Part shown: in pieces, positions 18,528 through 62,778 of the stretch
How the letters are laid out: each line of letters opens with the position of its first letter
Position numbering within the stretch: position 1 is the first letter of the stretch
Origin: a virus
Lineage: Duplodnaviria > Caudoviricetes
IMG/VR virus record: IMGVR_UViG_2671180604_000001
Location: 1 to 64,000 of that record
Length of the DNA: 64,000 nucleotides
Reading direction: 5' to 3' (one strand)
Position numbers and translations under genes: made by a program
Notes under the pieces: generated by a model
What the model was told of the DNA's origin: nothing
What the model saw: only the letters and a program-made list of their open reading frames with translations
The model's database searches: none

Positions 18528-18594
18528 TGGAACAATCGCTTTTTTCAAATAGCTGTAATGTCAAAATCATCCTATGTAAAAATAGGGTGATTTT
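18528..18594 (+). promoter_or_regulatory. Late-promoter-like element plus RBS-covering hairpin
   Basis: TGGAAC 18528, AAAAT 18563 (29-nt spacer); inverted repeat 18563-18575 / 18582-18594. Confidence 0.75.
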
Positions 18595-18597
18595 TTT

Positions 18598-20658
18598 ATG
18601 TCTGAATTTAAGAGTGGTCTACAGTACGACGAACTTGGTTTTTTAATAGGGCTAAAGCAATCAAGTCGTGACGTATCAAAAATAGATAAGAACGTGGAGC
18701 AAATCCGCGATATTTTACTTAGTTTAGGGAAAGAGATAGAGAGTCAGTACTCAAGAGCTGAGAACGAACCAAGACCAAAATTAAGCGCATTAGAACAAGC
18801 ACTCATTGATGCCCAGATTAAACCAGCTGATTTTTCTGATCTAATCCGTGAACAAGCAAATCCATTGGTTCAATCCTCATTAGCTTTAGATCGAGCTGCT
18901 AAATCAATTGAAGACTTGATAGCTGAATCAAGAAAATCTGACGATAACAATGCTCAACCTAAAGCAAAGCCTAAACGCCGTGCGATTGAAATTAATAGCA
19001 CTGAAGACGTTATAAGAGAATTTGGTAATAACGATCGCCAACGTGATGCAAACGGGCGATATGTTGGTTCTAGTTCCGAACAAACAACTTTGAGTAAAGT
19101 TACACAGACTATTGGGACCGCAATTAAGGGTGTATTACCTTCAAATCCACAGGGTGTTGACCCAACGCTTGACGCTATTAATGAAGTTGCGACTGTACTA
19201 TCACCAGTGAAGCGAGCAGCTGGATTTATGCTGCGTCCGCTTACTGGTTGGATGAAGTCGCGAAAACGCAATGAACCATTGCCAAAAGAACAGAGTGACC
19301 ATAATCGTAAGCTGATCAAAGTACTAGAAAAGATTGCTGCAAACAATGGAGGTGGATTATTTGGTCTATTGAAAATACTACCATTAGCATTAGCTGGCTT
19401 AGGTTCAACTGTGGCTGCTGCTGTTGCTGGTTTAGGACCAATTTTAGCAACCGCCCTTGCTGGTGCAGTTGGTGCTTATTTGGGTAGTAAAATTCATGAT
19501 AAGTTAGATGAAACTGAAACTGGGCAAGCCGTTAATGAATTTATAGGTAATGCAGCAGCTCGAACTCTTGCTTCACTAGGTAATGATGCAGCGAAAGAAG
19601 TCGTAGAGGCACATGATAAAGCTGACGATGCCGAACGTTATAAGTCTAGAAAAGAAAATCCAGCATGGTACTCAAATGATGGCGTATATCGCTTTGCACG
19701 TAAACTTGGTGTCCAACGTTACATGAAAGAAAATACACCTGGTTCGATGCTCTACCAAAAACAATACGGTGGACAGGGTGTTAATGGTAATGAGGTAGCA
19801 CAGTTTGGAGCTGCTGCAAGTTCAGGAAAATTAGTTGGAAACAATACGGCTGAAAAAACTTTGGCTTTAATTCGTAAACATGAAGGTTACAAAGAAAAAG
19901 CATATTGGGATGTCAATGCCTATAGAGTTGGGTATGGAAGTGATACTTTGACTGATAAAAATGGAAAAATTACTTCTGTAAATAAAACTTCGACTACTGA
20001 TAGGAAAGGTGCTGAAAGAGATTTAGTCCGCCGATCTAAAATATTTGCTAATGAAGCACGAGAAAAAGTCGGAGCGGAAAATTGGGATAAATTACCCGAT
20101 GATACAAAGGCAGCCTTAACATCGGTTGCTTATAACTATGGTTCATTGCCGAAAAAAGTAGTGAAGGCAGTTCAAACAAATGATATCAGTCAAATTTCAG
20201 AATCTGTTCGAAGTTTAGAGTCTCACAATGATGGGATCAATAAAAATCGTAGAAACGATGAAGCTAATATCATCAAGAACTCAATTATAAGAGAACCCAA
20301 TAAATATGCAGATTCAAAAGGTAAAAGAACAGAATCTCACCCAGAACAAAAAGTAACGCAAATTAGTAATGCTGCTGAACTTTTAAAGCAAAAATCTAAA
20401 ATGAATCAGCCATTATTAAATTTAAAAACTCCAGTAACACCAACTGCTACTCGTACAAGTAATTTTGGATCGAGTTATATTCAACCAAAAACTGAAACTA
20501 CAATCCAGCCTGCAAAAGAGTTTTTAACCTCACCGAAACCACAGGAAGTAGTTGTTAAGAATCAAAATAATGGTACTATCAATCAAAATGTGAGCAATCG
20601 ATTGCTTGCTCATGCAATAACTGGCGGCTTAGGAATGGGGGATAAATGGAACGTTTAA
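18598..20658 (+). CDS. Tape-measure / P1 Sit-like virion protein with GH24-type lysozyme domain
   Basis: Helical N-half, Gly/Ala-rich hydrophobic segment, LIRKHEGYKEKAYWDVNAYRVGYG...ALTSVAYNYG...RRNDEA. Confidence 0.8.
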   Translation: MSEFKSGLQYDELGFLIGLKQSSRDVSKIDKNVEQIRDILLSLGKEIESQYSRAENEPRPKLSALEQALIDAQIKPADFSDLIREQANPLVQSSLALDRAAKSIEDLIAESRKSDDNNAQPKAKPKRRAIEINSTEDVIREFGNNDRQRDANGRYVGSSSEQTTLSKVTQTIGTAIKGVLPSNPQGVDPTLDAINEVATVLSPVKRAAGFMLRPLTGWMKSRKRNEPLPKEQSDHNRKLIKVLEKIAANNGGGLFGLLKILPLALAGLGSTVAAAVAGLGPILATALAGAVGAYLGSKIHDKLDETETGQAVNEFIGNAAARTLASLGNDAAKEVVEAHDKADDAERYKSRKENPAWYSNDGVYRFARKLGVQRYMKENTPGSMLYQKQYGGQGVNGNEVAQFGAAASSGKLVGNNTAEKTLALIRKHEGYKEKAYWDVNAYRVGYGSDTLTDKNGKITSVNKTSTTDRKGAERDLVRRSKIFANEAREKVGAENWDKLPDDTKAALTSVAYNYGSLPKKVVKAVQTNDISQISESVRSLESHNDGINKNRRNDEANIIKNSIIREPNKYADSKGKRTESHPEQKVTQISNAAELLKQKSKMNQPLLNLKTPVTPTATRTSNFGSSYIQPKTETTIQPAKEFLTSPKPQEVVVKNQNNGTINQNVSNRLLAHAITGGLGMGDKWNV

Positions 20659-21035
20659 TATTGTGTTTTTTATTCATATTTTTCAGCATTAATGTTCATG
20701 CAGATATGGTGGGATGTAAAGGATTATCAAAACAATCAGATTTGAATAATTGTGCTAATAATTTTTTAGCTAAAACCAATGAAAAGCTTAATAAAGTTTA
20801 TTCAAATTATTTGTCTGACTTGACACCTGATGAGCAATCCAAACTTAAAGAATCTCAAAAAATATGGGGGCAATTTAAAGATAAAGATTGTGCATTTGAA
20901 TCTTCTCCAGTTAAGAAAGGTTCAATGTATCCTTATGTTTTATCTTCGTGTTTAGTAAATCGTAATGAAATAAGAATAGTTGAGCTTGAGAATATGATGT
21001 CATGTAAAAACGGGACTGAGCCAAGCTGTATATAA
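20646..21035 (+). CDS. LprI-family (DUF1311) lysozyme inhibitor, exported
   Basis: Signal peptide; C..QSDLNNCA..LNKVY..LKESQKIWGQFKDKDC..CL...R pattern. Confidence 0.8.
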   Translation: MERLILCFLFIFFSINVHADMVGCKGLSKQSDLNNCANNFLAKTNEKLNKVYSNYLSDLTPDEQSKLKESQKIWGQFKDKDCAFESSPVKKGSMYPYVLSSCLVNRNEIRIVELENMMSCKNGTEPSCI

Positions 21036-21098
21036 GTATAGGCAATAAATTATTGGCTCATGCAATATCAGGTGGATTGGGTATGGGGGGGAAATGGA

Positions 21099-24967: not shown

Positions 24968-25009
24968 GACTATACTCCGTGTGATTTAGGTGAAATTAAC
25001 TAGGTTGGT

Positions 25010-25822: not shown

Positions 25823-26142
25823 ATATGACTCCTACGTGTTCATATTTCGGGTTGTGCTAAAAATTATTATTTACCTTCGTCTTTTTAATCGTTGAATTCT
25901 CAAGAATGTTTGTCAGATCAAGAAAATTCAAGAAAGGAATTATCTTTAATCTTATGAATCTTAGAATTGATTCAATAGTGATGGCGATAAGTCTCATTTC
26001 TTTAGATAGATACTCTAGGAATAAATTAAACGAGTCGTTAGAATGTCAAACAGCGTAAAAGTTGTATTGTTCTAAAATGCATTTTGATTGTGATTTCACG
26101 CAAAGGTGTTAGGAAATTAAAACTCAAATTAGTAAAGGAAGT

Positions 26143-27273: not shown

Positions 27274-27296
27274 GGGATGAACTGATTTAAGTTGGA
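27274..27296 (+). repeat. Right copy of the 23-bp direct repeat
   Basis: Runs into the TGGAAC promoter motif at 27293. Confidence 0.9.
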
Positions 27297-27333
27297 ACAG
27301 CCATACTTAAAAGAGATTATATTACTTCAAAAT
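27293..27333 (+). promoter_or_regulatory. Late-promoter-like element
   Basis: TGGAAC 27293, AAAAT 27329 (30-nt spacer). Confidence 0.7.
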
Positions 27334-27361
27334 ATCCTTATAGAAACACAAGGCTTTTATT

Positions 27362-27877
27362 ATGGGTATTTTAAATTTAATAGCAATTACACCAGATTCG
27401 CCGTATATCAAAAAAATCAAATCAGCTTTGGAGAAGGCAACAGGTCAAAGCATTCCTTTGGTTGAAATTAAAAAGGTCCAACGTAAAGGCGGTGTAAGTA
27501 TTGTACCTGTATTTTTAGTTTTTGCTGGTGGGCAAGAGCTAACACTTTTCGCTCGAGCAAGCGCGGATGTGTTTAAAGCTGAATTGAATGGAAAAGAGAT
27601 CGTTTTACCAGGTGATTTTAGTGACGATTATAAGCAGACTTTTGATAACGCCGTTTCAGGAATTGCAAAGTTGATTCGCGATTCACAAGCCAAAGTAGAG
27701 CAACAAAACCAAAAAGGAAAGGTTAAATTGCCACCACGAAAAAATCGTAGTATCCAACAGCAAATCAGTGATAAGCGCGAAGAAGAAACACTACTCGATC
27801 TAGAGCTTTCGAATCTGACAGCACAACGAGACCAGCTTCTTGAACAACTAAAACAAGCACAGACGAATGCAGCGTAA
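27362..27877 (+). CDS. hdf: Hdf-like protein (stand-alone DarA N-terminal-type domain)
   Basis: KVQRKGGVSIVPVFLVFAGGQELTL...LNGKEIV resembles the corresponding segment of the DarA homolog at 55460; C-terminal coiled coil. Confidence 0.7.
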   Translation: MGILNLIAITPDSPYIKKIKSALEKATGQSIPLVEIKKVQRKGGVSIVPVFLVFAGGQELTLFARASADVFKAELNGKEIVLPGDFSDDYKQTFDNAVSGIAKLIRDSQAKVEQQNQKGKVKLPPRKNRSIQQQISDKREEETLLDLELSNLTAQRDQLLEQLKQAQTNAA

Positions 27878-27888: not shown

Positions 27889-27915
27889 AAAAAGACTACT
27901 TCGGTAGTCTTTTTT
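27889..27915 (+). terminator. Intrinsic terminator
   Basis: AAAAAGACTAC-TTCG-GTAGTCTTTTTT (cUUCGg loop). Confidence 0.85.
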
Positions 27916-27917
27916 AA

Positions 27918-27958
27918 TGGAACAAGAATAAAAAGTAACAGGTTCAAAGCAATAACCT
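27918..27958 (+). promoter_or_regulatory. Late-promoter-like element
   Basis: TGGAAC 27918, immediately after the terminator; TAACCT 27953. Confidence 0.6.
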
Positions 27959-27982
27959 TAGCTAATAGCTTTGGAGTTTGCC

Positions 27983-28348
27983 ATGTATCTTAACTATCAA
28001 TCTGTTATCGTCGATATTTTCATTATTACTTCATTCATTTTGCACGTATATCTTGCATTTGGCAGTATTAAAACAATGTCTGGCCCTTTATCGGCTTTAT
28101 TAAATAAGGGTGTAACGGATGTTATTTATAAGAAAGTAAAACGATTGATTTTTGGTTTGTCCTTTCTTTGTCTTTCCCTTACTTGTCTTGTTACTTGGCG
28201 AAGCTATGAATTGCTTTTATTCCTGAATGTGAATGGTTATGGACTTTATATTCTTTTAGCTACTTTTCTTCTGTATAGCTTTGCAATTTTAGCAGCTTTT
28301 ACTTTCTGTAAATTGTTGCTGATGACAGCACAAAGGTCAGGCTTATGA
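27983..28348 (+). CDS. Three-TM membrane protein, candidate holin
   Basis: Three hydrophobic helices, GGAG RBS, behind a late-type promoter. Confidence 0.45.
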   Translation: MYLNYQSVIVDIFIITSFILHVYLAFGSIKTMSGPLSALLNKGVTDVIYKKVKRLIFGLSFLCLSLTCLVTWRSYELLLFLNVNGYGLYILLATFLLYSFAILAAFTFCKLLLMTAQRSGL

Positions 28349-31236: not shown

Positions 31237-31326
31237 AGATTGGAACTCAAGAAAACTAAGTGAACTTAGCAATGGTTTTATGTAGTTGTTTGATGAAACA
31301 ACATAAACCATTGTTAGGATTTATAC

Positions 31327-31737
31327 ATGACTCAAGATAATACTGAGGAATTTGCATTAACAACAAATGTTGGTAGTGATGGTGATCTTCTAGTAGAGCA
31401 GTTCTTAGGCTTTGCAAAACACGATATTAGCGATGAAGATTTCGAAAAACTACTCGCTGGTCAATCTGTAGAAGACGTAACAGCCTATAAACCTGCAACC
31501 TATTACAAGATTTCAGCCGATCCAAATTCACCAGACTACAACGAACCATTCGACATTCACATCCACTTCCAAGATGGACCAACATTGATCGACGGTGTAA
31601 ACGGTGCAACTAATGAATCGTTATTAAAGATCCTGATTCATCGCACTCAATACCTAGACAGTAAATTCCCATCAGACCAGTACAAACAAGCCATTGCATC
31701 TATGGAATCGGCTTTAAGTAACTTAAAAAGTATTTAA
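31327..31737 (+). CDS. Tad1-like anti-defence sponge-fold protein (divergent)
   Basis: IHFQDGP...GVNGATNESLLKILIHR...FPS....A...MESAL matches the Tad1 family core. Confidence 0.65.
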   Translation: MTQDNTEEFALTTNVGSDGDLLVEQFLGFAKHDISDEDFEKLLAGQSVEDVTAYKPATYYKISADPNSPDYNEPFDIHIHFQDGPTLIDGVNGATNESLLKILIHRTQYLDSKFPSDQYKQAIASMESALSNLKSI

Positions 31738-33254: not shown

Positions 33255-33321
33255 TGGAACATATAGAAATAAGAATATTTTAATTTGCAAAAATAGCCCT
33301 AATACACAATCTATTGGGGCT
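33255..33321 (+). promoter_or_regulatory. Late-promoter-like element plus hairpin
   Basis: TGGAAC 33255, AAAAT 33290; inverted repeat 33295-33304 / 33312-33321. Confidence 0.75.
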
Positions 33322-33326
33322 TTTTC

Positions 33327-34250
33327 ATGTCTGAAACAGGTCGAAAAACGAAAAGAATTACATACAATCTGCATGAACGTGGTCGCTCTCACTTAGGTAA
33401 GGACCGCAGCAATGTTGATATGAATGAAATGATCAAACAGATCAATAGTCCTCAAGTACAAGAAATGGTAAAGACAGGGACTTTGTACGGTTATAACGGA
33501 CATGAAATTCGTAAGCGTTATGGGATGAATCCGCCTGATTCCGTCATCATTGATGGAAAGGTAGTTTATCTTGAGCGCTCATTTAGAACAATCGAAGCTT
33601 ATGCAGATAAAGAGGGGAATGTAACGCATGTCACTGAGTTTTTAGATAATGAATCTGGTGAATATGCACGAACTCAATATCAAGCACGAGTAGGCGGTTT
33701 TAGTTCAGCACAAAACTATAAGAAAGCAGGATTAGGACTTATTCCAGTAGGTTTCTACGGCTTTGATTATGTGACTCAACCTAACTACACAACCAATGTT
33801 GGAGATGGGCAATTATTTGATGGCTTAGCCATTCCAGTTGATCAAGATGGATTGATTGCATCCTTTGATAGCAGTACGGACGTAACTTTGCTTTCGCCGT
33901 CAGAAGCAATGATTGCTCATTTACTTGAACAGCAAATTATTCGTGACTTTGACAATATTCATGCTCAGTTACAGCTTTTACAAATGAATGGTCAATCATT
34001 AGACCAGATTGATGAATTAGCGAATCAAATTGCACGAAAAGATAAGCGAGAAGCGATTCAATCACAGCGTATGCAAGACCTTTGTTCTGGATTAGTTGGT
34101 GAAGTTCGTTCATTTGATTCTGTATGTGCTGAAGCAGAGGAACGATTAACTGAAAGTGATCTAGCGCGAATGCGTATAAGTGGTGAAACCACTAAAAATA
34201 ACAAAGCTAGACCACGCATTTTTAAGAGTATGTTCGGATTTGGAGGGTAA
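33327..34250 (+). CDS. pro: Prohead protease (P1 Pro-like)
   Basis: LYGYNGH, VTHVTEFLDNESG, GGFSSA and GFDYVTQPNY match P1 Pro motifs as recalled. Confidence 0.8.
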   Translation: MSETGRKTKRITYNLHERGRSHLGKDRSNVDMNEMIKQINSPQVQEMVKTGTLYGYNGHEIRKRYGMNPPDSVIIDGKVVYLERSFRTIEAYADKEGNVTHVTEFLDNESGEYARTQYQARVGGFSSAQNYKKAGLGLIPVGFYGFDYVTQPNYTTNVGDGQLFDGLAIPVDQDGLIASFDSSTDVTLLSPSEAMIAHLLEQQIIRDFDNIHAQLQLLQMNGQSLDQIDELANQIARKDKREAIQSQRMQDLCSGLVGEVRSFDSVCAEAEERLTESDLARMRISGETTKNNKARPRIFKSMFGFGG

Positions 34251-37566: not shown

Positions 37567-37641
37567 TGGAACTGAACGCTTAAGAAGCGGTTCTAAAATA
37601 CCAAAATAGCCATAGTGATAAATAGGTGATCTATGGCTATT
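37567..37641 (+). promoter_or_regulatory. Late-promoter-like element plus hairpin covering the start codon
   Basis: TGGAAC 37567, AAAAT 37603; perfect inverted repeat AATAGCCATAG 37605-37615 / CTATGGCTATT 37631-37641. Confidence 0.78.
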
Positions 37642-42742: not shown

Positions 42743-42782
42743 TGGAACCTTAGAGAATAAAAATAGTATTTTCTTTAAGAAT
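42743..42782 (+). promoter_or_regulatory. Late-promoter-like element
   Basis: TGGAAC 42743, AGAAT 42778 (29-nt spacer). Confidence 0.6.
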
Positions 42783-42815
42783 GTCTATATCAAATTAAGT
42801 GAAGTAATAAAGTTA

Positions 42816-43118
42816 ATGACTTATTTAGTTTTCAAAGAAAAAGGCAAGAATATAGGTGATAAAGGCATGGTTGCTCAATGCACTTCTGCTATTTTTAATT
42901 ACCAGGTGATCGGTGCAGGGGCAGTGGTTGAATTCTTTGGTAGTAATCATCCTTCTCCCGATATTAGCGATGAAGATCATTGGATCACTATTGCGACAAT
43001 CACCGCTGGTATTCCTGACACAGAACCATTTCGACAACATGCGTGGGATAAATTGCGCTATGTTGTAACCGCAGGTAATGATGTTGAAATCTATGTTTCA
43101 AGTGGTGTATCTGGCTAA
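42816..43118 (+). CDS. Small beta-rich virion protein (100 aa)
   Basis: ATG 42816 lies just downstream of the promoter motif; the longer 42528 start overlaps the fiber gene. Confidence 0.65.
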   Translation: MTYLVFKEKGKNIGDKGMVAQCTSAIFNYQVIGAGAVVEFFGSNHPSPDISDEDHWITIATITAGIPDTEPFRQHAWDKLRYVVTAGNDVEIYVSSGVSG

Positions 43119-43194: not shown

Positions 43195-43234
43195 TGGAAC
43201 TGAACAAAATCAGGAATTTTCTACATGCGAAATT
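43195..43234 (+). promoter_or_regulatory. Late-promoter-like element
   Basis: TGGAAC 43195, GAAATT 43229. Confidence 0.6.
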
Positions 43235-43273
43235 AGGTTATCAATTTTCATAAACCTATTTGCAGGTGAAAAA

Positions 43274-45986: not shown

Positions 45987-46013
45987 AAAACTCTGCTAAA
46001 TGCAGAGTTTTTT
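45987..46013 (+). terminator. Intrinsic terminator
   Basis: AAAACTCTGC-taaat-GCAGAGTTTTTT. Confidence 0.8.
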
Positions 46014-46018
46014 CATAT

Positions 46019-46058
46019 TGGAACATAAGAGATTTTAAATAAACCACAAGTGCAAAAT
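46019..46058 (+). promoter_or_regulatory. Late-promoter-like element
   Basis: TGGAAC 46019, AAAAT 46054 (29-nt spacer). Confidence 0.72.
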
Positions 46059-46088
46059 AACTAAAACGTTTAGCCAAAGGCAAACAAA

Positions 46089-46391
46089 GTGAACACAACA
46101 AAGATATTAGGTGAGGCGGTCGGGATTCAAAGCCAAGGCACCATCGACAAAACTGAAACACAAACGAATGAAGGGCTAACTTCAGCATTAATTATAGGTC
46201 GGTTTCTGCGCGGTCGAGTCGATAAGCCGATGACCATTCATCAAGGCAATATACGCGGTCAATTGGGTTATCAGCCAGACAACATCGATTATATCGCCGT
46301 CCAAGACTGCTTAGATACAGGCGTGCCCAGCGTCCAAGTGTTACGGGTTGGTCAAACCTTAGATTCTGAAGAAGCTGAACAGCCTCAATAA
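46089..46391 (+). CDS. Tail sheath N-terminal-like protein
   Basis: GI....IDKT...IIGRFLRGRVDKP...VQVLRV, typical of sheath N-termini. Confidence 0.6.
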   Translation: MNTTKILGEAVGIQSQGTIDKTETQTNEGLTSALIIGRFLRGRVDKPMTIHQGNIRGQLGYQPDNIDYIAVQDCLDTGVPSVQVLRVGQTLDSEEAEQPQ

Positions 46392-49233: not shown

Positions 49234-49287
49234 AATTTTAATGATGGTTTAGAATAAAATTTGCTAAACCATCGCCTTTTAATAATT

Positions 49288-49327
49288 CGGAACACTTTAA
49301 TTTTTGAAATTATTTAGCATTCATAAT
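49288..49327 (+). promoter_or_regulatory. Late-promoter-like element (CGGAAC variant)
   Basis: CGGAAC 49288, CATAAT 49322. Confidence 0.6.
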
Positions 49328-49354
49328 TGATGTATCTATTAAGATTTGAGAATT

Positions 49355-50005
49355 ATGATGCGTCAAGTCAATCCAATGCTTTTAAATCAAATGAAAGCTG
49401 ACTCAATAGCTATTCAGCAACTTGGTTCACCGATATTGTCCTGTCAAGGTATGTTGGTTCCTCGTGGTTTGGAAGATTACCGTTTTTTAATTAAAAGCTG
49501 CCCACGCCCGATTATAAGCAATGAAGATCCAGCTGAAGTTCAATTCCCTGGTGGATTTACTGGGATTGTGGCTGGACCTCCAAAAACACATTACACAGGG
49601 AATTTACAACTCTTGGTCACTGAAGCTGGCCATGATCAACTTTTCGCTGAATATGTAGTAGCTAGTAAGGGAATAATTGATTGCGATTATTATGATGGGC
49701 ATTTAAAAAGTTTTACACGAGCTTATGCGCTTGAAAACTGTGCTATTCGTTTTGAAATGGCTGAGTATGATACAGATAGTCGTTCGCAAGTCATGACTGT
49801 TTCTTGTCCTATCGATTTTAACTTTTTTGGTGGCTTCGCAAATATTGGTAGTAATGGCACTGTATTACCAGGTCTAAAACAAATTGAAGGGGTAGAAGAT
49901 TTAATTAGCAGAGTTCAAAGTGTAGTGAATACTGCTCAAGCTGTTACTGGTTTAGCTGGGGCAGCTACAGGTCTTACTCGTCAAATTGGTTCGTTATTTG
50001 GGTAA
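49355..50005 (+). CDS. Tail tube protein (P1 Tub-like)
   Basis: 219-aa beta-rich tube-like pattern; first gene of the tail operon. Confidence 0.6.
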   Translation: MMRQVNPMLLNQMKADSIAIQQLGSPILSCQGMLVPRGLEDYRFLIKSCPRPIISNEDPAEVQFPGGFTGIVAGPPKTHYTGNLQLLVTEAGHDQLFAEYVVASKGIIDCDYYDGHLKSFTRAYALENCAIRFEMAEYDTDSRSQVMTVSCPIDFNFFGGFANIGSNGTVLPGLKQIEGVEDLISRVQSVVNTAQAVTGLAGAATGLTRQIGSLFG

Positions 50006-50010
50006 CTGCT

Positions 50011-51353: not shown

Positions 51354-51359
51354 GTGGCG

Positions 51360-51875
51360 ATGATGAATGGTTTCAAAAAAGCCAAAATCTTGAGTTACGA
51401 TGCGCAAGGCAGAACTGCAAAGATTCATATACCAGGTCTTACAGATGGAGCTAGTAATGGATTAACAGCTACTTTTGCCTATCCCGTAGGTGATAGCGAC
51501 AAAGATACTGAACGCGAAATCTTAGAGGGTGAGGATGTATATATCTTCTTTGAAAATAATGAACAATCGCGTCCTGTCATCGCCTTTTACAGTAGTCATA
51601 GCAAAGAAGCTGTAGTTGACATTCGCCGTATTAGACAAGAAAACATTGAAATATTGGCAAGAACAGAAATTACTATGGATGCACCAACTATCCATTTAAA
51701 AGGAAAAGTGATAATTGACGGGGATATTGTCCACACAGGTGATCAAACTACGACAGGGACTATTTCAGCGACTGATGATGTTATTGCAGCAGGTATTTCA
51801 GGTAAATCGCATCCTCATACTGGTGTTAGAGGCGGAACAGATAATAGTGGTCCGCCGTTACCATCTGGAACTTGA
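51360..51875 (+). CDS. Baseplate central spike (gpV/gp5-like)
   Basis: OB-fold N-terminus, beta-helix, C-terminal HPH metal-binding apex (SGKSHPHTGV). Confidence 0.85.
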   Translation: MMNGFKKAKILSYDAQGRTAKIHIPGLTDGASNGLTATFAYPVGDSDKDTEREILEGEDVYIFFENNEQSRPVIAFYSSHSKEAVVDIRRIRQENIEILARTEITMDAPTIHLKGKVIIDGDIVHTGDQTTTGTISATDDVIAAGISGKSHPHTGVRGGTDNSGPPLPSGT

Positions 51876-51906
51876 TTGATATATCAAACTTATAACAAGC
51901 CAAAAT
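51866..51906 (+). promoter_or_regulatory. Late-promoter-like element
   Basis: TGGAAC 51866 (inside the last codons of the spike gene), AAAAT 51902. Confidence 0.7.
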
Positions 51907-51935
51907 AGTTGTAATTGTTAATCTTTGGCGAATAT

Positions 51936-53477
51936 ATGGCTGCTTCAGACATTTTATCCCTTTTGTTAGGACCAAGTGCGAATAGCATCCCTCAGCAATT
52001 GGTTGATGCTAACCAAGAAGTCATGGCGCAAATGTATGATTCAGTAGCTCCATTTTCACTTGGCACGCATACTACACCTGAAAATAAAAAAAGAACCCGT
52101 AAAGAGATTTTGACCAAGTGGGAGCAAATGCTAAAGTTTGCCCCCGTACCAGAAGGCATCGGTATACATGTCATGGCTGCGCTTGGGGGTGATACGCACA
52201 GTGGTCAACAAATTTTTATCACACCAACAGAGCGATTACGTGGAGAAATTGGAGCAACGGAAAAAGCCCAATTAGAAAAACTAAAAAAGCGAATTAAACC
52301 TGTAGAAACCATTATTAATAAATACATTACTAAATTATGTTCGGAAGGTATTTCCTTTGGGGATGCCTATGCCCGTGTATATGGCAAAAAGGGAGTAGGT
52401 GTTACTGACTTACTTAGTAATGAATATACCTATGCACCTCAAATACAGGCATTCGAGCAGGGCAGTAAGACAGTCGCTTACTTTGCTCTGAATCCAAAGA
52501 ACTGGTCCAAAGTCATTACGAAATTAAATGCCACACAGATGGTACGGATGAAATTGCCACGGATTCAAAATGTACCGCAATTTGATCCAGTAGAAGCTAG
52601 TTTAATTTCTCAAATGCTGGAAGGTGACGATCCTGAAGAACTACCGATTTTACCAGCGCAAGTTGGTGGCTCTTTTTTGATTGCCATAGAGAAAACCTAT
52701 GATGATGTCATTCTTGCCTTAACCACGATGAACAGTCAGCAAGTCGCTGATGCTGTTAATCAAATGTTTCTGACGCTGAACATGGCAGGTATGCCTCCAG
52801 CACAACGAGATGCTTATATCCGTGGTCTAGAGGGAATGCTCAAAGATCATGAGAAGTTCGTAAAAAATGCAATGGAAGGTGGTGAAGGTATTTGGAATAC
52901 TAAATATCACGTATTACCGACTTGGGATGAAAAACAGATTCTTAATCCCGTTGGAGATATCAAAGGGCAACGTAATTCACCGGTTAATATTGAAACTTTT
53001 ATGATTAATGTTCGCTTGCTAATGGGGGGAATTGGTCTTGACCCTTCAATGGTTGGGTGGGCTGATATGCTTTCTGGTGGAATTGGAGATGGGGCAGCCT
53101 TTCATACGTCAAGTCAGATTATGCGCCGTTCCATGTATATCAGACAATCAGCCGTTCAATTCGCCAATGATATTATGCACATCGATTGGGGCTATTGTTA
53201 CAACGAACAATTTGAAGCAGGTGAGCTTGATTTTCCATGGCAAATTGAATTTTCTAGTACCCAGTCAGCAGCTGTGACTGAAGAAAATACCAATAAGCAA
53301 ACTCAAATGAATACATCGCTGCTTAAAATCCAAGTCATTACCTCCCTTAAAGAATCGGAATTAAGCGAAGAAACCATGCAATATATATTAGAAAAAGATG
53401 CTGGTTTTAATTATGACGATTCATGTCGCATCGCTGCGGATATTGCGAAATCTCGTAAAAATGCTGGGAGTGAATAA
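51936..53477 (+). CDS. prt: Portal protein (P1 Prt-like)
   Basis: ~513 aa; FGDAYARVYG and GIGLDPSMVGWADMLSGGIGDGA motifs. Confidence 0.8.
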   Translation: MAASDILSLLLGPSANSIPQQLVDANQEVMAQMYDSVAPFSLGTHTTPENKKRTRKEILTKWEQMLKFAPVPEGIGIHVMAALGGDTHSGQQIFITPTERLRGEIGATEKAQLEKLKKRIKPVETIINKYITKLCSEGISFGDAYARVYGKKGVGVTDLLSNEYTYAPQIQAFEQGSKTVAYFALNPKNWSKVITKLNATQMVRMKLPRIQNVPQFDPVEASLISQMLEGDDPEELPILPAQVGGSFLIAIEKTYDDVILALTTMNSQQVADAVNQMFLTLNMAGMPPAQRDAYIRGLEGMLKDHEKFVKNAMEGGEGIWNTKYHVLPTWDEKQILNPVGDIKGQRNSPVNIETFMINVRLLMGGIGLDPSMVGWADMLSGGIGDGAAFHTSSQIMRRSMYIRQSAVQFANDIMHIDWGYCYNEQFEAGELDFPWQIEFSSTQSAAVTEENTNKQTQMNTSLLKIQVITSLKESELSEETMQYILEKDAGFNYDDSCRIAADIAKSRKNAGSE

Positions 53478-53480
53478 TAG

Positions 53481-55368: not shown

Positions 55369-55383
55369 AAATTAGTTTAGTGA

Positions 55384-55451
55384 TGGAACTAGTCAGGTTT
55401 CTTAAACTTTCATAATGAAATAATTGCCTCAATCAGAAAAATATTGAGGCA
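55384..55451 (+). promoter_or_regulatory. Late-promoter-like element plus RBS-covering hairpin
   Basis: TGGAAC 55384, ATAAT 55420; TGCCTCAAT 55425-55433 / ATTGAGGCA 55443-55451. Confidence 0.75.
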
Positions 55452-55459
55452 TTTTTTAA

Positions 55460-57361
55460 ATGCGAAATATCGACATATTTACTTTATTACATGAACCACA
55501 TACCAGTCGTTTAGTACAGGGATTTGATTCTGTAAATAGTGGTGCTTGTTCAATTGGATTGATCAAAGGGCAATATCGTCAGCTCAATGCGATTGTTGCA
55601 GAGTCTGCAACGGAAGAAGATCAGTGGCGTATTGTCAATTTAAAGGGTTCAATCAATAGCATTGCAGCGTTTGATTCAGTTGCCGTTTTAGGTGCAGTTG
55701 ATAATGACCATGCAAGTGCATTAGCACAAATGCAGTTTGGACGTATGTTCGATGCCATTGAAAATGATGTAATTGAAACCAATACAAATGGTCTCTTACG
55801 CCATTTAGCCACATCACAATTTCATAAGAATATGCAACTTATTCATCGAGATCATTTAGTCGCATTGCAAGACATTCCATGTGCTGTATTACCAGGTTGG
55901 GACAGTATTGAACTTACAACACATGAAGGAAAAACAGCAAATCTGCTATTAGACATGCAACTTCATGATGACAATACAGAACTATTATCTAGTTTTGATG
56001 GTTTAGCCAATTTGCTTGAATCAATTGGAGCAGAACACCCTGATTTTGATTCAATCATTGTTGAGTATCAATATCTCGATAAATTAATGAATATGCTGCA
56101 TACAGCCATGCAAACAGCGTCTAAAGGCGGTGTAAAGGTTCTAAATGTAGATCGTAGTGAAAAGCCATTTCGACACAAAAAAGTGCTGAATGTCGCCGTT
56201 TCATATGATTTTGAAGATGGGCAATCCATTACGATTCTATTCCATAATCCTGATCGTGACGCAAAACGGATTTCGCCACAAGACACTTTATTGTCGTGGA
56301 AGATTCTCATGAATAAGCGTGATGTAACAGGCGTGATTCAGCCAAACCAAGGTGAGGGTATTGCATTACCTGTACTTGCTGGGCGTGTTGTTAAATTGAT
56401 TAATCAGAACAGCGCACGGTTTAAACGTACTCAGGCTAAGAAAGCCGAAAGTGCGCAAACTTTAGCTGATACCGAACAACGTATTGCAGATAAGCAAAAT
56501 CAAAAGACGGCATTATCTTCAGAAATTCAGGGGCTACTTGATCAAATTGATGGATTAAATAAGCAAAATAATGGTCAAGCTCCAAATGTTGATACTGGTG
56601 CGGTGGATAATGCTGCACAATCTGTAAATACAAAAGCTGTGACCAAAGCTGAAGCTCGTCAAATTTATGATGTTTTAAGTACAAGTCACCGTTGGTTGAC
56701 TGGTGGTACCACTGAAGAATTCTATAACCAGAATTATCCTACTGGAATAGATGAAGCGCTTATAGATGCAAAAAACCTTCTTGAACGTCCATTTGGAAAA
56801 GTTGCTTTGGCAAATGGATTAAAAGATTCAATTGAACGAATGATTGCAACTGTAGAAAATACAATTGAACGCTGGAATAAAGGTTTAAGTGAAGATTCAT
56901 CAAAAGCCAAAACCTATCCGCCTATTGAGGACTTAGGTGATGGTTATTACAAAGCCTTCAAAAATGATAAAAAACTTGATGATTGGACAGCCCATATCAA
57001 TACATATGGCGAATGGCAAGTATCAGCAAATAATGCTTCATCTCGTGCTTGGAACAATGGCTATGGGGCACCTCGATTCTTTAAAACACTTGATGAAATG
57101 ATTGCTAAGTATCCAGCATTTGCTGCATTACCTGCAATGTTACCAACAGAGGATAATGCAAACGATAATAGCAATAATGATGATGCAGAATATTTGAATA
57201 AAGTCATTAAAGGTGAGGTTGATTTCTCAAATGCAAGTGAAGTTGAAACTCAACTAGAAACTATTGGTGGGCGTTTAACGTCTGAAACAAATGATTTATT
57301 TGAACAAGCTGTTTCAGCTTATTCGATGTATCAAGTAAACCAAGCTGCATCGGTCAATTAA
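55460..57361 (+). CDS. darA: DarA-like internal head / antirestriction protein
   Basis: FEDGQSITILFHNPD...LLSWKILMNKRDVT core, coiled coil, C-terminal YLNKVIKGEVD...LFEQAV domain. Confidence 0.8.
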   Translation: MRNIDIFTLLHEPHTSRLVQGFDSVNSGACSIGLIKGQYRQLNAIVAESATEEDQWRIVNLKGSINSIAAFDSVAVLGAVDNDHASALAQMQFGRMFDAIENDVIETNTNGLLRHLATSQFHKNMQLIHRDHLVALQDIPCAVLPGWDSIELTTHEGKTANLLLDMQLHDDNTELLSSFDGLANLLESIGAEHPDFDSIIVEYQYLDKLMNMLHTAMQTASKGGVKVLNVDRSEKPFRHKKVLNVAVSYDFEDGQSITILFHNPDRDAKRISPQDTLLSWKILMNKRDVTGVIQPNQGEGIALPVLAGRVVKLINQNSARFKRTQAKKAESAQTLADTEQRIADKQNQKTALSSEIQGLLDQIDGLNKQNNGQAPNVDTGAVDNAAQSVNTKAVTKAEARQIYDVLSTSHRWLTGGTTEEFYNQNYPTGIDEALIDAKNLLERPFGKVALANGLKDSIERMIATVENTIERWNKGLSEDSSKAKTYPPIEDLGDGYYKAFKNDKKLDDWTAHINTYGEWQVSANNASSRAWNNGYGAPRFFKTLDEMIAKYPAFAALPAMLPTEDNANDNSNNDDAEYLNKVIKGEVDFSNASEVETQLETIGGRLTSETNDLFEQAVSAYSMYQVNQAASVN

Positions 57362-57374
57362 GGAAAAGCTTTAA

Positions 57375-57692
57375 ATGAATGGCTTAGAGAAGTTAAAACT
57401 TACGAAAGAATTACGTACTTTACTTGAGCAGATCCCGAATCTAAAAGGAATGGAGAAACTTCAAAGCGCTAAGCGATTACGTGAACTGCTTGAGTTGCTT
57501 GGTGGAAAGTCTAATGAGGCCGTGAATAAGCTGTTTCAGTCTATCATTGACGGTGATGTCAAAGTTTCTGTTGAGCTACTACAAAATGTTCGTAGTGAAG
57601 CCGAGAAAAACTTAGATGACCCACTATTACTTGAGGCGGTAAATGTCTTGATAGCTCAAGTTAATGAGATAGTTGGAACTGAGCAAGCTTAG
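57375..57692 (+). CDS. Small dar-operon protein with DarA-C-like domain
   Basis: LEKLKLTKEL N-terminus; LFQSIIDGDV...LLEAV resembles the DarA C-terminus. Confidence 0.6.
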   Translation: MNGLEKLKLTKELRTLLEQIPNLKGMEKLQSAKRLRELLELLGGKSNEAVNKLFQSIIDGDVKVSVELLQNVRSEAEKNLDDPLLLEAVNVLIAQVNEIVGTEQA

Positions 57693-57735
57693 ACAAGCAA
57701 TAAGCTTTCAAAATAGTCCTTAAATGGGCTATTTT
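57674..57735 (+). promoter_or_regulatory. Late-promoter-like element plus hairpin
   Basis: TGGAAC 57674, AAAAT 57710; AAAATAGTCC / GGGCTATTTT. Confidence 0.75.
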
Positions 57736-57749
57736 TTTGAGTTTTATCT

Positions 57750-60578
57750 ATGAAGAAGATCGATAATATTTCCAAATATACGGATGTTTTGGCTGCTATT
57801 GATTCAATGGTTACAGCATTAGGCAATCAAGTCATTGTTGAGTGGGATGGTGAACAGGAGAGTAAAATATATCAGGAATATTTAGATAATCTTGATCAAT
57901 ATGATGGTAAATCAATTACAGCATCAAAGGCTTATTTTAATGAGCATTTAAATGGAAAGTTGATTAAAACCAAAATTGGTTTAGTTCGTATTAACTCTAA
58001 ATCTCGTGGAAAAATTCATGACCGTATGCGAGATGCAAAGTATCTTGCATTACCTTATATTCCAGAAGTTTTGATGACGGGTGATGTAAGTGATTTAGTA
58101 CCGCTAAATAAAGATCGTGATGATAGTGCGGTAGGTTACTATGTATTTAATAAATTAAAGGAATTGGAAAATTACAGTCTGAATATTACATTAAAAGTGG
58201 CTTTGGATTCTGATGGGAATTTATTGTATTACTTAGGAGCAGCAAAAGAAAAAGCCAACTTACGGACTGTCTCACAGGTCATTAACCCCACAGGCTCTAA
58301 AGCTGGCTTTGATTCTATTGAATCATATGATGATGATGAAATCAATCTATATGTACAAGTTTTAGACAAAAACGGTAATGTACTGGCAGAGGATGATGCT
58401 GAAAAATTAATATGGGGAGATAGTCCAAAAGCTGCATCTTTAATTCTTAAAGGCAGATTAAACAACGTCAAAACAGCTAAAGGCACTAAGGTATCAACAG
58501 TATTTGCAGTATTGGAAGTTGATAAGGTTATTGCCTCACATACTGCAACTGGCAGCGAAAATCCTAATTATCCTCAAGAACTACAACCACGAGATCGTAG
58601 TCGAGAGTCTTCTCAAGCGTGGGTGCAAAAAACTTCAAATACTTTAGATCCAGAAAGCTTGGGACGTTCAGGTCGTGCAGATACGGGTGCGCCTATTGTC
58701 GGTGATGATTTGGTAGTTGAGTCTGGTAATGGCCGTACTATGGCAATCCAGCTTGCATATGAGCGCGGAAATGCTGATGAGTACAAAGAATGGTTGATTG
58801 ATGAAGCAGAATATTTTGGCTTTAGTGCGGATCAAATCAACCAATTTAAACAGCCTATCCTTGTGCGTATTCGTACCTCTGAAATTGATCGTATTCAATT
58901 CACAGTAGAAGCCAATCAAGATGATAAGTTGTCCTTTAGTGCTACTGAACGAGCAAAAACAGATGCAAGACGATTAGATGAGAACCTATTGTCACTGTTT
59001 ACACCTGGTGAAGATGGCGACCTAATCACTGCAAGTAATCAGAAGTTTATCCAAGGATTTTTAAAGTCTTTAGGTGAAACGGAAGCAGCTCAATATATCG
59101 GGACAGATGGAAAGCCAACACAAGCATTAGTCACACGTATGAAAGCTGCAATATTCAGCAAAGCTTATAATGATGACCGACTTCTTGAAATGATGGCAGA
59201 CCAAACAAAACCAGACTTGCAAAATATGCTAAATGCACTGGGAGCAGCTGCTCCAAAATTTATTGAAGCGCAATCTGTCAGCCGTGGTGACGTGCAGGAT
59301 GTATCAAGTTCTATCGTTGATGGTATTGAGCAAGCACTTGATAAGCGAGTGACAAATGCAATTATTGATGCAGCGAATACGATCTTGGCAGCAAAGCAAA
59401 ATGATCAAGATATTGTTGAATTTGTAAAACAACAGGGGTTATTTGGTGATCTAGGCGAAGGCGTGCCAGAGCTTGCAGTATTCTTATCTAAGAATAGTCG
59501 CAGCGCCAAAAAGATGAGTTTGCTATTCAAAGCAATGGCAGAGTTTGCAGAAAAAGAAGCGATTGATGGGAAAAACATGGGGCTTTTTGGTGAACCTGAA
59601 CCTGTCAACATCAAAGATGCAATCAATTACGCCGTGAAAGTGATTGAGGATAATTATGGTGATAATGCCAATCTGAGCATGTTTGATTCTATTGATTCAC
59701 TTACGACAATAGATGAAAAAGCACATGATGCAGCTACATCACCTCATAATGATTTAGACTTTCCAACAGCAGAACAAAAGCAAACTGGTGAATACCCAAA
59801 AGGGCAATTATCAATTGGTGATTTACAGATTGCAATTGAGAATCCAGCAGGTTCAACGCGCTCTGGTGTTGACCCCAATGGAAATGATTGGGAAATCAAA
59901 CTTTGTCATCATTATGGATACATAGAGAATACTACTGGTGCCGATGGTGACGAAATTGATGTATTTGTTAAGAATCATCTAGAGCATGTACCAGAGTTCG
60001 CTTATATCATCAATCAGCTAAATTTAGATGGTACTTTTGACGAACAGAAAGTGATTTTAGGAGCTGAGACAGAAGAAGAAGCCAAAGCGATCTATATGTC
60101 TAATTATTCTGAGAGGTGGCAGGGTTTTGGCGGAATCAAAAAGATTTCAATGAAGGAACTACTTACTAAGATTCAGCATACGTGGTCTGAGTTTGATTCT
60201 TGGGTAATGGATGGAAATTATGAGCATATTCCAGTTGATAAAATCAATATGGAAAATGCCCCTAAGATTCATGAAAGTAATATTAGTAAAGAAGATCCAA
60301 TTGTAGTAATAGAAAAGAATGGGACATACTTTCTTGTTGCTGGCTTAGAACGCATTGCGTTTGCAAAACAAAGAAGTGAAAAACTCATTCCAGCGATCAT
60401 TTTTGATGATAAAGAAGTGAAAACATCAATTATTCAAAAAGCTATTAAAAAAGCAGGTTCAAGCGTGGACCCTGTTGCATTGGCTGCGCTTATTGTTGAT
60501 GAATTAGATAAAAGTGTATTGAAAGAATTCGATGATATTTCAAATACAGTATTAGACTTCCTACATAGATTTGAGTGA
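57750..60578 (+). CDS. ddrB: DdrB-like polyvalent protein (LPD3-like, ddrB-ParB, inorganic-pyrophosphatase-like and ParB-like domains)
   Basis: NPNYPQELQPRDR, GAPIVG..VESGNGRT and NSRSAKKM (P1 DdrB); IENPAGSTRSG..YGYI..T.GADGDEIDVFV..FDEQKV (InPase). Confidence 0.85.
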   Translation: MKKIDNISKYTDVLAAIDSMVTALGNQVIVEWDGEQESKIYQEYLDNLDQYDGKSITASKAYFNEHLNGKLIKTKIGLVRINSKSRGKIHDRMRDAKYLALPYIPEVLMTGDVSDLVPLNKDRDDSAVGYYVFNKLKELENYSLNITLKVALDSDGNLLYYLGAAKEKANLRTVSQVINPTGSKAGFDSIESYDDDEINLYVQVLDKNGNVLAEDDAEKLIWGDSPKAASLILKGRLNNVKTAKGTKVSTVFAVLEVDKVIASHTATGSENPNYPQELQPRDRSRESSQAWVQKTSNTLDPESLGRSGRADTGAPIVGDDLVVESGNGRTMAIQLAYERGNADEYKEWLIDEAEYFGFSADQINQFKQPILVRIRTSEIDRIQFTVEANQDDKLSFSATERAKTDARRLDENLLSLFTPGEDGDLITASNQKFIQGFLKSLGETEAAQYIGTDGKPTQALVTRMKAAIFSKAYNDDRLLEMMADQTKPDLQNMLNALGAAAPKFIEAQSVSRGDVQDVSSSIVDGIEQALDKRVTNAIIDAANTILAAKQNDQDIVEFVKQQGLFGDLGEGVPELAVFLSKNSRSAKKMSLLFKAMAEFAEKEAIDGKNMGLFGEPEPVNIKDAINYAVKVIEDNYGDNANLSMFDSIDSLTTIDEKAHDAATSPHNDLDFPTAEQKQTGEYPKGQLSIGDLQIAIENPAGSTRSGVDPNGNDWEIKLCHHYGYIENTTGADGDEIDVFVKNHLEHVPEFAYIINQLNLDGTFDEQKVILGAETEEEAKAIYMSNYSERWQGFGGIKKISMKELLTKIQHTWSEFDSWVMDGNYEHIPVDKINMENAPKIHESNISKEDPIVVIEKNGTYFLVAGLERIAFAKQRSEKLIPAIIFDDKEVKTSIIQKAIKKAGSSVDPVALAALIVDELDKSVLKEFDDISNTVLDFLHRFE

Positions 60579-60604
60579 TCAAAAAATATTGTAGCAATCT
60601 TCAT

Positions 60605-60656
60605 TATGTTTTAGATCAACATTGGGGGGATTTCTCCCATGTTGATCTAAAACATA
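60605..60656. terminator. Long hairpin after ddrB
   Basis: Perfect 18-bp arms TATGTTTTAGATCAACAT / ATGTTGATCTAAAACATA, plus an inner G/C stem. Confidence 0.6.
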
Positions 60657-60745
60657 CTTATTATAGCTAAATATTATTTAAAATATTGAATTGAAACAAT
60701 ATGTTCTGATATATTCTTGATGTATGTAAATAGGTTAAATTTTTT

Positions 60746-61909: not shown

Positions 61910-62240
61910 AAATGTAATGAAAATCAATGTAGCATCAGATTTCTCGAAGAATCCGTCTGGGCGTTATATTTTAGATGGTAAAACATCTGGCGAAGCATTT
62001 TTAAAAAATGTTTTGTTACCTGCCGTGAAAACGCATGATTTTGTCGAAATAAATTTTGATGGTGTACGTGGATATGGTTCATCCTTTCTAGAAGAGGCGT
62101 TCGGTGGTTTTATTCGTGAAACCAAGATGTCTGTTGCAGATTTTTTTAAGAAAATTAAAATTATTTCTCAAGACCCTTTTTTATTAATCGAAATTAAGGA
62201 ATATCTTGAGGATGAGTCTAAAAGGATATTGTCTGCTTAA
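61902..62240 (+). CDS. STAS-like DUF4325-type protein
   Basis: GRY..DG..SGEAF...INFDGVRGYGSSFLEEAFGG. Confidence 0.8.
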   Translation: MSKNVMKINVASDFSKNPSGRYILDGKTSGEAFLKNVLLPAVKTHDFVEINFDGVRGYGSSFLEEAFGGFIRETKMSVADFFKKIKIISQDPFLLIEIKEYLEDESKRILSA

Positions 62241-62704
62241 TGGCTCCTTGGATTAAAGACTCTATATTACCTTTTCTACCTTCACTACTCACTATCTTAG
62301 GGTGGTGGATAGTTGGTAGAAGGGATGGTATTGGTAAGAAAAAAGAAGCCCATAATCGAAGAGTAAACTTAGCTATTGAGCAGTCTCAAAAAATTTATGA
62401 ATCTGCAAAAAAATTCTATCTTTTATCTGGTTCAGCTCCAGAAGCTTCTGCGTTAGAAGATATGTTAAATTGCGACTTTAGAAGACTGAGCACGATCCTT
62501 GGTCTTGTAAACAAAAGCTTAATTTCTGAAAATCAAAAGCAATCGATAGGTAATTCATTCATCGAATATAAAAAAGTAGTTACTGGTGGGCAATTTGGTA
62601 CAAGATCTAGAAATGCATACCCCTTGAACCATCTGCTTTTTGTAGAAATAGATAATACTTATAATGATTTTTTTCTAGAACTTGAAAAAATTATGCAGAT
62701 TTAG
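62240..62704 (+). CDS. Membrane-anchored helical protein (putative effector)
   Basis: N-terminal TM SILPFLPSLLTILGWWIV; 1-bp overlap with the STAS gene. Confidence 0.7.
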   Translation: MAPWIKDSILPFLPSLLTILGWWIVGRRDGIGKKKEAHNRRVNLAIEQSQKIYESAKKFYLLSGSAPEASALEDMLNCDFRRLSTILGLVNKSLISENQKQSIGNSFIEYKKVVTGGQFGTRSRNAYPLNHLLFVEIDNTYNDFFLELEKIMQI

Positions 62705-62714
62705 TGATTATCAT

Positions 62715-62778
62715 TGGAACTCAGAAATAGTTCACTTTTAAAATATTTAAAATAGCTCTATTAACCTAGGGCTATTTT
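62715..62778 (+). promoter_or_regulatory. Late-promoter-like element plus RBS-covering hairpin
   Basis: TGGAAC 62715, AAAAT 62749; AAAATAGCTCTA / TAGGGCTATTTT. Confidence 0.75.

Follow-up and report, generated by a model that had tools for sequence, protein, structure and literature searches.

Predicted late promoters set within the 5' arms of RNA hairpins in a temperate Acinetobacter myophage: a putative barrier to read-through expression

The stretch of DNA analysed here (64,000 nucleotides (nt), positions 1 to 64,000 of the IMG/VR virus record IMGVR_UViG_2671180604_000001, Duplodnaviria; Caudoviricetes; hereafter the window) has a G+C content of 36% and carries at its left end an excisionase gene, recombination genes and genes for a CI-like repressor, a replication initiator and a methyltransferase, whereas lysis and virion genes occupy the + strand from ~17 kb onward. 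PHROGs searches with all 74 open reading frames (ORFs; 48 of them were searched against Pfam and 7 against NCBIfam) yielded matches to Hdf, DarA/DarB, DdrA, a PmgG-like protein, sheath, tube, portal and large terminase. The portal protein shares 64.9% identity with its counterpart in Acinetobacter phage vB_AbaM_ABMM1 and 24.6% with P1 Prt, and the window belongs to a temperate Acinetobacter myophage with virion genes distantly related to those of P1. Its late region contains fifteen copies of a promoter-like module, most of which overlap a potential RNA hairpin. Six of these hairpins had been singled out in an earlier note, made from the letters of the window, which proposed that -10 boxes of late promoters lie in the left arm of hairpins hiding the ribosome binding site (RBS) or start codon, so that transcripts from upstream would terminate or stay untranslated while initiation inside the left arm would remove the stem.

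Ahead of each of these six hairpins we found a conserved TGGAAC followed, after 27–29 nt, by a hexamer of the form xAxxxT, usually CAAAAT. The fifteen TGGAAC-hexamer sites of the window (Table 1) are all located just 3' of a stop codon and 5' of a lysis or virion gene. Non-coding TGGAAC sites collected from the window and from a set of 93 related loci amounted to 280 distinct sequences. Counting the T of TGGAAC as position 0, their composition has maxima at position 36 (A, 0.83), position 40 (T, 0.83) and position 47 (A, 0.71), the first two of which fall within yAAAAT at positions 35–40. In the same composition, no position from 6 to 34 nt after TGGAAC exceeds a conservation of 0.67, and no -35-like conservation exists 17 nt upstream of the -10 (positions 12–17). 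When the sites from the window and the 93 related loci were reduced to 93 clusters with <60% identity, xAxxxT was present at a spacing of 27–29 nt in 74 of them, against only 14–39 at nine other spacings. Within the window, the bare words are not conspicuous, since AAAATAG is not over-represented (27 occurrences vs 25.5 expected) and TGGAAC is not clearly enriched (36 vs 27.2 expected, with 7 of 100 shuffles as high); the non-random feature of AAAATAG is its fixed distance from TGGAAC. The hexamer keeps this spacing also at sites without an overlapping hairpin (27918, 46019 and 42743), which argues against its being no more than the A-tract of a terminator, and the conserved distance bears out the identification of (C)AAAAT as the -10 already made in the earlier note. 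These sequences suggest a promoter with TGGAAC at about -47 to -42, no -35, an xAxxxT -10 and a predicted start near position 47, that is, the canonical 7 nt 3' of the inferred -10. A first by-eye reading that placed the -10 at 18–21 nt after TGGAAC was ruled out by the spacing test on the clusters, and a by-eye check for a dyad partner of TGGAAC, or for an ECF-type or sigma-54-type spacing, gave no support.

All six inverted repeats described previously are present (18563–18594, 33295–33321, 37605–37641, 55425–55451, 57710–57735 and 62749–62778). In uniform 56-nt segments taken at a fixed offset from TGGAAC and compared with 200 dinucleotide shuffles each, respectively 1, 1, 1, 3, 6 and 1 shuffles folded as well (z-scores in Table 1). 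The stems at 37605 and 55425 are perfect, and the remaining four (18563, 33295, 57710 and 62749) contain four non-Watson-Crick positions, every one of them a U in the left arm facing a G in the right arm, in agreement with the claim that all mismatches are U-G. Likewise, the ATG at 37633 does lie inside a right arm. Two other descriptions in the earlier note hold for some of the hairpins only. T-runs directly follow those at 18563, 33295, 55425 and 57710, but the run is interrupted at 62749 and none adjoins 37605; Shine-Dalgarno (SD)-like purines are found in the right arm at 18563, 33295 and 55425 but not at 57710 and 62749, where respectively ~22 and ~14 nt separate the purine run from the ATG, a distance too long for an SD. 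The hairpin at 57710 hides no RBS and that at 62749 doubtfully so, and both look like plain terminators. The earlier note mentioned neither the TGGAAC box nor the nine additional sites, and it passed over the three where a separate hairpin lies upstream (see below).

The hexamer and the bases following it form the 5' arm, and the predicted start falls at the end of this arm or in the loop. Across 74 representative sites, 5'-arm pairing amounts to 0.55–0.68 over the 18 bases preceding the predicted start (-18 to -1) and is down to 0.15 at +3 to +5; from +6 on, 3'-arm pairing climbs. We tested against shuffled sequences how well the last 25 nt ahead of the predicted start pair with the 40 nt that follow, and found the pairing significant (p<=0.05) at 34 of these 74 sites, compared with only 2 of 74 for a mock start placed 30 nt downstream. 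Within the window, where 300 shuffles were used, pairing is significant at nine of the fifteen sites (18528, 27293, 31241, 33255, 37567, 43195, 55384, 57674 and 62715). Three of the others (27918, 46019 and 49288), which have no significant overlapping hairpin, each possess a separate hairpin just upstream of the box, as would be expected if every unit had to be insulated. The same geometry is seen in the cultured phage vB_AbaM_ABMM1, where 12 of 15 candidate sites have the hexamer at a spacing of 29; of these 12, 11 were judged by eye to have a 5' arm lying no farther downstream than the predicted start.

Pairing between the RNA arms is under selection. At site 27293, for which 29 orthologues (24 distinct rows) were aligned, 90.8% of the cells of the 13-bp stem are paired, compared with 43–54% when the partner is slid, and five pairs show double changes, in 20 cells, a level reached by none of 500 shuffles; one of these compensatory double changes lies inside the -10 hexamer itself. 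The -10-containing stem of site 51866, GCCAAAAT with ATTTTGGC, is kept in 12 orthologues around unrelated loops, and in relatives of site 37567 with a 77% identical terminase, CCATAG/CTATGG is replaced by CCATAAC/GTTATGG, with the start codon still paired (the MAFFT alignment of the orthologues of this site mixed two structural classes and its pair counts were excluded). At site 33255, variation consists mostly of wobble changes, and at site 55384 5 of 17 pairs are compensatory, each owing to a single sequence, which we read from the alignment as the distant relative L093 every time. In this relative and in another distant one, L078, unrelated stems occupy the same place at 11 of 14 sites (by eye). 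Covariation across relatives, one of the checks envisaged in the earlier note, is therefore found in the form of compensatory and wobble changes that keep the pairing. On the + strand, G-U pairs outnumber A-C mismatches 105 to 4, a count that is only indicative as the folding program favours G-U, and the + strand folds better than the - strand at 45 of the 74 representative sites (p=0.008). A variant arrangement was observed in L078 (18048–18110), where a terminator hairpin occupies the spacer between TGGAAC and the -10 and its T-run runs into the -10.

We then computed how much energy it would take to open the RBS (-15 to +4 about the start codon) in the read-through RNA and in the RNA predicted to start at the promoter. 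The mean cost is 10.5 kcal/mol in the former and 5.7 kcal/mol in the latter, and removal of the left arm lowers it by at least 2 kcal/mol at 10 of the 15 sites, including five of the six flagged before, and by 8–14 kcal/mol at 18528, 33255, 37567 and 55384; this gain is not reached at 57674, 42743, 46019, 51866 and 17233. A G-C stem with an immediate U-run, the criterion for Rho-independent termination, was detected by a scan at 18563 and 33295 and by sequence at 55425, 57710 and 62749, and these five hairpins look like intrinsic terminators. Such a U-run does not adjoin the hairpins at 37605, 43226, 31271 and 51899; four or five hairpins of this second kind instead cover the SD or the AUG.

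Table 1. TGGAAC-hexamer modules of the window (all on the + strand), with their predicted -10 hexamers, hairpins, fold z-scores, number of shuffles pairing as well across the predicted start, and computed RBS opening costs
Site	Extent (strand)	Box	Predicted -10	Start codon and context	Hairpin	z	Shuffles (of 300)	RBS opening, read-through vs promoter-initiated (kcal/mol)
1	17233..17290 (+)	TGGAAC 17233-17238	GAAAAT 17268-17273	ATG 17409, 129-nt leader	Promoter-like motif with weak A-U hairpin, not significant	+0.3	142	
2	18528..18600 (+)	TGGAAC 18528-18533	CAAAAT 18562-18567	ATG 18598, lysozyme-domain protein	13 bp, 18563-18594, then T-run; SD-like AGGGTG in right arm	-3.9	2	17.9 vs 3.9
3	27293..27373 (+)	TGGAAC 27293-27298	CAAAAT 27328-27333	ATG 27362, Hdf-like gene	Left arm 27329-27337 pairs 27364-27372, enclosing SD and ATG	-2.5	7	
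4	27893..27985 (+)	TGGAAC 27918-27923	TAACCT 27953-27958	ATG 27983	Separate, terminator-like, 27893-27910 with T-run 27911-27916, upstream of box, kept in 7 orthologues; hairpin over -10 not significant	-1.1	51	
5	31241..31329 (+)	TGGAAC 31241-31246	TTTTAT 31276-31281 (non-consensus, in -10 position)	ATG 31327	Long, 31271-31312; ATGGTTTTAT kept in 7 orthologues	-2.1	0	
6	33255..33329 (+)	TGGAAC 33255-33260	AAAAAT 33289-33294	ATG 33327	33295-33321, then TTTTT; GGGG in right arm	-2.7	14	16.0 vs 6.9
7	37567..37641 (+)	TGGAAC 37567-37572	CAAAAT 37602-37607	ATG 37633, downstream of large terminase gene	37605-37641, ATG in right arm, no adjacent T-run	-3.2	2	14.3 vs 4.8
8	42743..42818 (+)	TGGAAC 42743-42748	AAGAAT 42777-42782	ATG 42816	No hairpin		288	
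9	43195..43276 (+)	TGGAAC 43195-43200	GAAATT 43229-43234	ATG 43274	43226-43264, without T-run	-1.3	1	12.7 vs 8.8
10	45987..46091 (+)	TGGAAC 46019-46024	CAAAAT 46053-46058	GTG 46089	Separate two-way terminator 45987-46011 upstream; none over -10	-0.7	38	
11	49246..49364 (+)	CGGAAC 49288-49293	CATAAT 49322-49327	Tail-tube gene	Separate, 49246-49270, upstream of box; GATGTAT 49329-49335 can pair ATGCGTC 49358-49364 (start codon) with two G-U, not significant; GACGCAT pairs ATGCGTC in same position in relatives		44	
12	51866..51938 (+)	TGGAAC 51866-51871	CAAAAT 51901-51906	ATG 51936, portal gene	GCCAAA 51899-51904 pairs TTTGGC 51924-51929, weak in window	-0.3	71	
13	55384..55462 (+)	TGGAAC 55384-55389	AATAAT 55419-55424	ATG 55460, DarA-like gene	55425-55451, then TTTTTT; GAGG in right arm	-2.6	16	13.7 vs 5.7
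14	57674..57752 (+)	TGGAAC 57674-57679	CAAAAT 57709-57714	ATG 57750	57710-57735, then T-run; terminator-like, RBS outside stem	-2.2	8	4.6 vs 4.7
15	62715..62787 (+)	TGGAAC 62715-62720	TAAAAT 62748-62753	ATG 62785, PmgG-like gene	62749-62778	-3.2	0	11.8 vs 6.6

We consider it probable that these late promoters operate from within the 5' arm of a hairpin, in such a way that RNA arriving from upstream folds and either stops or stays untranslated, whereas RNA started at the promoter itself cannot fold. The lysis and virion genes would be split into at least 15 short units, each opening with the same promoter module, and in most modules the -10 and the bases up to the start would constitute the 5' arm, with the 3' arm, carrying a U-run, SD-like purines or the start codon, situated in a leader of 20–40 nt. 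Incoming RNA, the possible sources of which are lysogen-expressed morons, the early operons and the late unit just before, would contain both arms and fold, and would then terminate at the U-run or keep the ribosome site closed. By contrast, RNA made from the module's own promoter would begin only where the 5' arm ends, or within the loop, and would be left unfolded, elongated and translated. As a sequence-based model, this read-through lock or terminator is well supported in silico, and the mechanism put forward in the earlier note, although only partly supported overall, appears to be the most likely one.

Several points weigh against it. Pairing across the predicted start is not significant at six of the fifteen sites (17233, 27918, 42743, 46019, 49288 and 51866), and at 57674 the RBS opening cost is equal with or without the left arm. 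The unpaired probability of the SD or AUG, a cruder measure that shows smaller changes than the opening cost, barely moves at 37567 (0.52 to 0.53) and 55384 (0.36 to 0.40). Several stems have only 3–4 G-C pairs, which makes their termination efficiency uncertain, and many of the related sites are orthologous, so that the cluster counts are not fully independent. The start position leans on the canonical 7-nt distance from an inferred -10, and the late timing of the units is deduced from gene content only. Four RNA-library assemblies compared with 44000–63900 gave few, short and low-depth contigs carrying no start or end information, and a literature search found no usable Acinetobacter primary transcriptome covering prophages.

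The alternative that survives best, although we regard it as unlikely, is that the hairpins are ordinary terminators or 3'-end stabilisers that overlap the next promoter because the intergenic gaps measure just 65–90 nt, with neither a selected lock nor unlocking by internal initiation. Morons classically end in a terminator, T-runs accompany five of the six flagged hairpins (with that at 62749 interrupted), the hairpin of site 57674 covers no RBS and that of 62715 doubtfully one, and three sites use a separate upstream hairpin, all of which would be expected of plain terminators. However, the hairpins devoid of a T-run pair the start codon or the SD (37567, 43195, 31241 and, weakly, 49288), the pairing between the 5' arm and the start codon has been rebuilt from different bases in relatives, and the boundary between arm and loop coincides with the predicted start across the 74 representatives, which compaction alone does not predict. 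Less probable still is a start upstream of the whole stem, which would place the hairpin in every late mRNA as an attenuator requiring an antiterminator or as a 5' stabilising stem-loop. In its favour, second -10-like words do occur at some sites 18–21 nt after TGGAAC (TAAAAT at 37594 and 62739, CATAAT at 55411), but xAxxxT is found at a spacing of 17–19 in only 14 of the 93 clusters and at 22–24 in 26, against the 74 at 27–29, and conservation stays at or below 0.67 throughout the spacer (6–34 nt after TGGAAC); in addition, some ten promoter-terminators would need a dedicated antiterminator, and no family match in the PHROGs, Pfam and NCBIfam searches suggested one, although this negative is a weak one. 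Finally, it is very improbable that the repeats act as DNA, either as operators for a dimeric regulator or as cruciforms over the -10 and the start, since, although they overlap the core promoter and several share AAAATAG...CTATTTT, stem sequences and loop lengths (6–19 nt) vary between sites and relatives while pairing is kept, the imperfections on the + strand are G-U rather than A-C, and it is the + strand that folds better.

The most likely mechanism, a promoter-containing arm that closes read-through RNA, has a precedent in T4, as the earlier note correctly stated. According to two reviews (PMC3014915, PMC2988022), genes e, soc, 49 and I-TevI each have a hairpin that sequesters the RBS, with the late promoter located in the DNA of its 5' strand, so that RNA initiated upstream closes the SD or AUG in a helix and late RNA, which is without the 5' strand, is translated. 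The T4 cases differ in having the gp55 promoter TATAAATA and in concerning a lytic phage and a handful of genes whose early expression is harmful. The modules of the window lack the gp55-type TATAAATA and have instead TGGAAC-N27-29-(C)AAAAT in a temperate phage; they cover 9–10 of 15 late units, and about half of their hairpins are also terminator-like. Sequestration of the SD or start codon in the read-through RNA, as in T4, is predicted in silico at 10 of the 15 sites.

In architecture, the nearest known system is that of the promoter-early stem-loop (PeSL) cassettes of the T4-type phages RB49 and phi1 (Arbiol et al. 2010, PMC2839356); in logic, it is the four T4 genes. As described by these authors, PeSL cassettes show the same compact order of stop codon, promoter, stem-loop, SD and start codon, with stem-loops that often overlap or directly follow the -10 and contain G-T pairs; the stem-loop was proposed, and demonstrated in a reporter, to terminate upstream transcription and to shield late genes, and the cassettes mark points of exchange between genomes. 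They differ in that their promoters are strong sigma-70 early promoters with a -35 and AT-rich sequence upstream, clustered among non-essential genes. The modules described here have no -35, bear TGGAAC at about -45 and stand ahead of virion and lysis genes. A stem-loop at the -10, between stop codon and SD, is found at 9–10 of the 15 sites, and terminator-like T-runs can be recognized by sequence at 18528, 33255, 55384, 57674 and 62715. The modules do not conform to the sigma-70 consensus of PeSL promoters; a separate sigma-70-like case is present at 48485–48558 (+), where a perfect 12-bp hairpin (48515–48542) begins 3 nt after a near-consensus promoter (TTGACA, 16 nt, TAATAT) and precedes an ATG at 48556. 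The start-inside-hairpin geometry seems to recur with a host-type promoter at 48485–48542.

P1 (AF234172) shares related virion and anti-restriction genes (DarA/DarB, DdrA, Hdf and PmgG) and likewise has a late region made up of numerous units, whose promoters possess a -10 and lack a -35. In contrast with the window, a 9-bp, AAGTGACTT-like box stands 4 nt ahead of the -10 in its annotated late promoters, and the phage encodes Lpa. Sites of the window type have no conserved positions at the offsets (22–30) equivalent to the P1 box near -22, and tblastn detected no homologue of Lpa (gp10) in the 64-kb window (best E 2.1). Three of the 11 P1 late promoters nevertheless pair with the SD of their leader (LPsit, 0 of 300 shuffles; LPdar, 10 of 300; LP23, 16 of 300), the -10 or discriminator region pairing with the SD of sit, lydA and gene 23, whereas the other eight show no such pairing. 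A literature search found no paper joining P1 late promoter, stem-loop and ribosome binding site. The type of promoter, the temperate setting and the near genome-wide use set the window apart, the principle itself being already known from T4.

The TGGAAC box is presumably the site of a phage activator. No late activator or sigma factor was named by the PHROGs (74 ORFs), Pfam (48 ORFs) or NCBIfam (7 ORFs) searches, and we found no published account of TGGAAC as a phage late promoter in a literature search. A gene at 11009–11869 (+) encodes a 286-amino-acid protein and follows RusA-like and helix-turn-helix (HTH) genes, in the position where lambdoid phages encode Q. In a feature-based search, its product weakly resembles small-terminase or HTH clusters (score 0.93; 161 features in common, below the guide value of 170) and could, speculatively, be a candidate for the TGGAAC-binding activator. 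The same kind of search with 11866–12534 gave nothing useful.

The earlier note had also linked the hairpins to morons, and three of its six do follow moron-like genes. These genes, at 31941–33248, 54310–55368 and 60746–62704 (+) in the late region, have AT-rich upstream sequence and no structural match, and they precede sites 33255, 55384 and 62715, respectively. The first two have no PHROG match and the genes in 60746–62704 match unnamed PHROGs only; 60746–62240 has a weak HATPase_c_2 match and a DUF4325 (STAS-like) match, and no PADLOC match. An RNA-library contig of a relative skips 54191–55421, and with it 54310–55368, and rejoins the window at 55422, where the -10 of site 55384 meets its hairpin. 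More generally, of 119 points at which homology between the window and relatives breaks off, 16 lie in the elements, vs 4% expected, and within intergenic DNA 13 of 19 do so, vs 41% expected (p=0.016), which is weak evidence for the elements as recombination joints.

We tentatively raise a wider possibility, which we hold to be rather less likely than not to apply in full, namely that these modules represent a family-wide, self-insulating late-promoter cassette. It would combine the TGGAAC box and an activator of a new type (not Lpa) with a CAAAAT -10 and a hairpin straddling the start, in a module of 75–90 nt that silences incoming RNA, is switched on by internal initiation and serves as a joint for the swapping of morons and other modules. 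If so, the family would comprise temperate Acinetobacter myophages, including the relatives known as viral contigs and the cultured ABMM1. For late genes in a common group of Acinetobacter prophages, the work provides a concrete promoter model that can be tested, TGGAAC-N27-29-CAAAAT, and it illustrates how a temperate phage may keep cargo genes of the late region on without leaking lysis and virion proteins. Placing the start inside a hairpin may even be a general design, as suggested by the early PeSL cassettes, three of 11 P1 late promoters and the window. The module could also improve the annotation of operon boundaries in these prophages and offer a compact natural part that combines insulator and promoter.

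Outside the modules, no Rfam family reached its gathering score in the window, and no tRNA genes were found. The early operon closes, directly before the first TGGAAC promoter, with two genes (12699–16075, +) encoding an AAA ATPase and an S8 subtilase. Compared with the models for the IetAS anti-phage defence system, they match IetA (E 1.8e-76) and IetS (E 2.1e-53), respectively. Host-like cargo is present at 24011–27129, where the - strand encodes an alpha/beta hydrolase and a short-chain dehydrogenase and the + strand an AraC-family regulator. Adjoining the gene of the 686-amino-acid lysozyme-domain protein (18598–20658), 20646–21035 (+) encodes a protein with an LprI-type lysozyme-inhibitor domain (E 8.8e-17).

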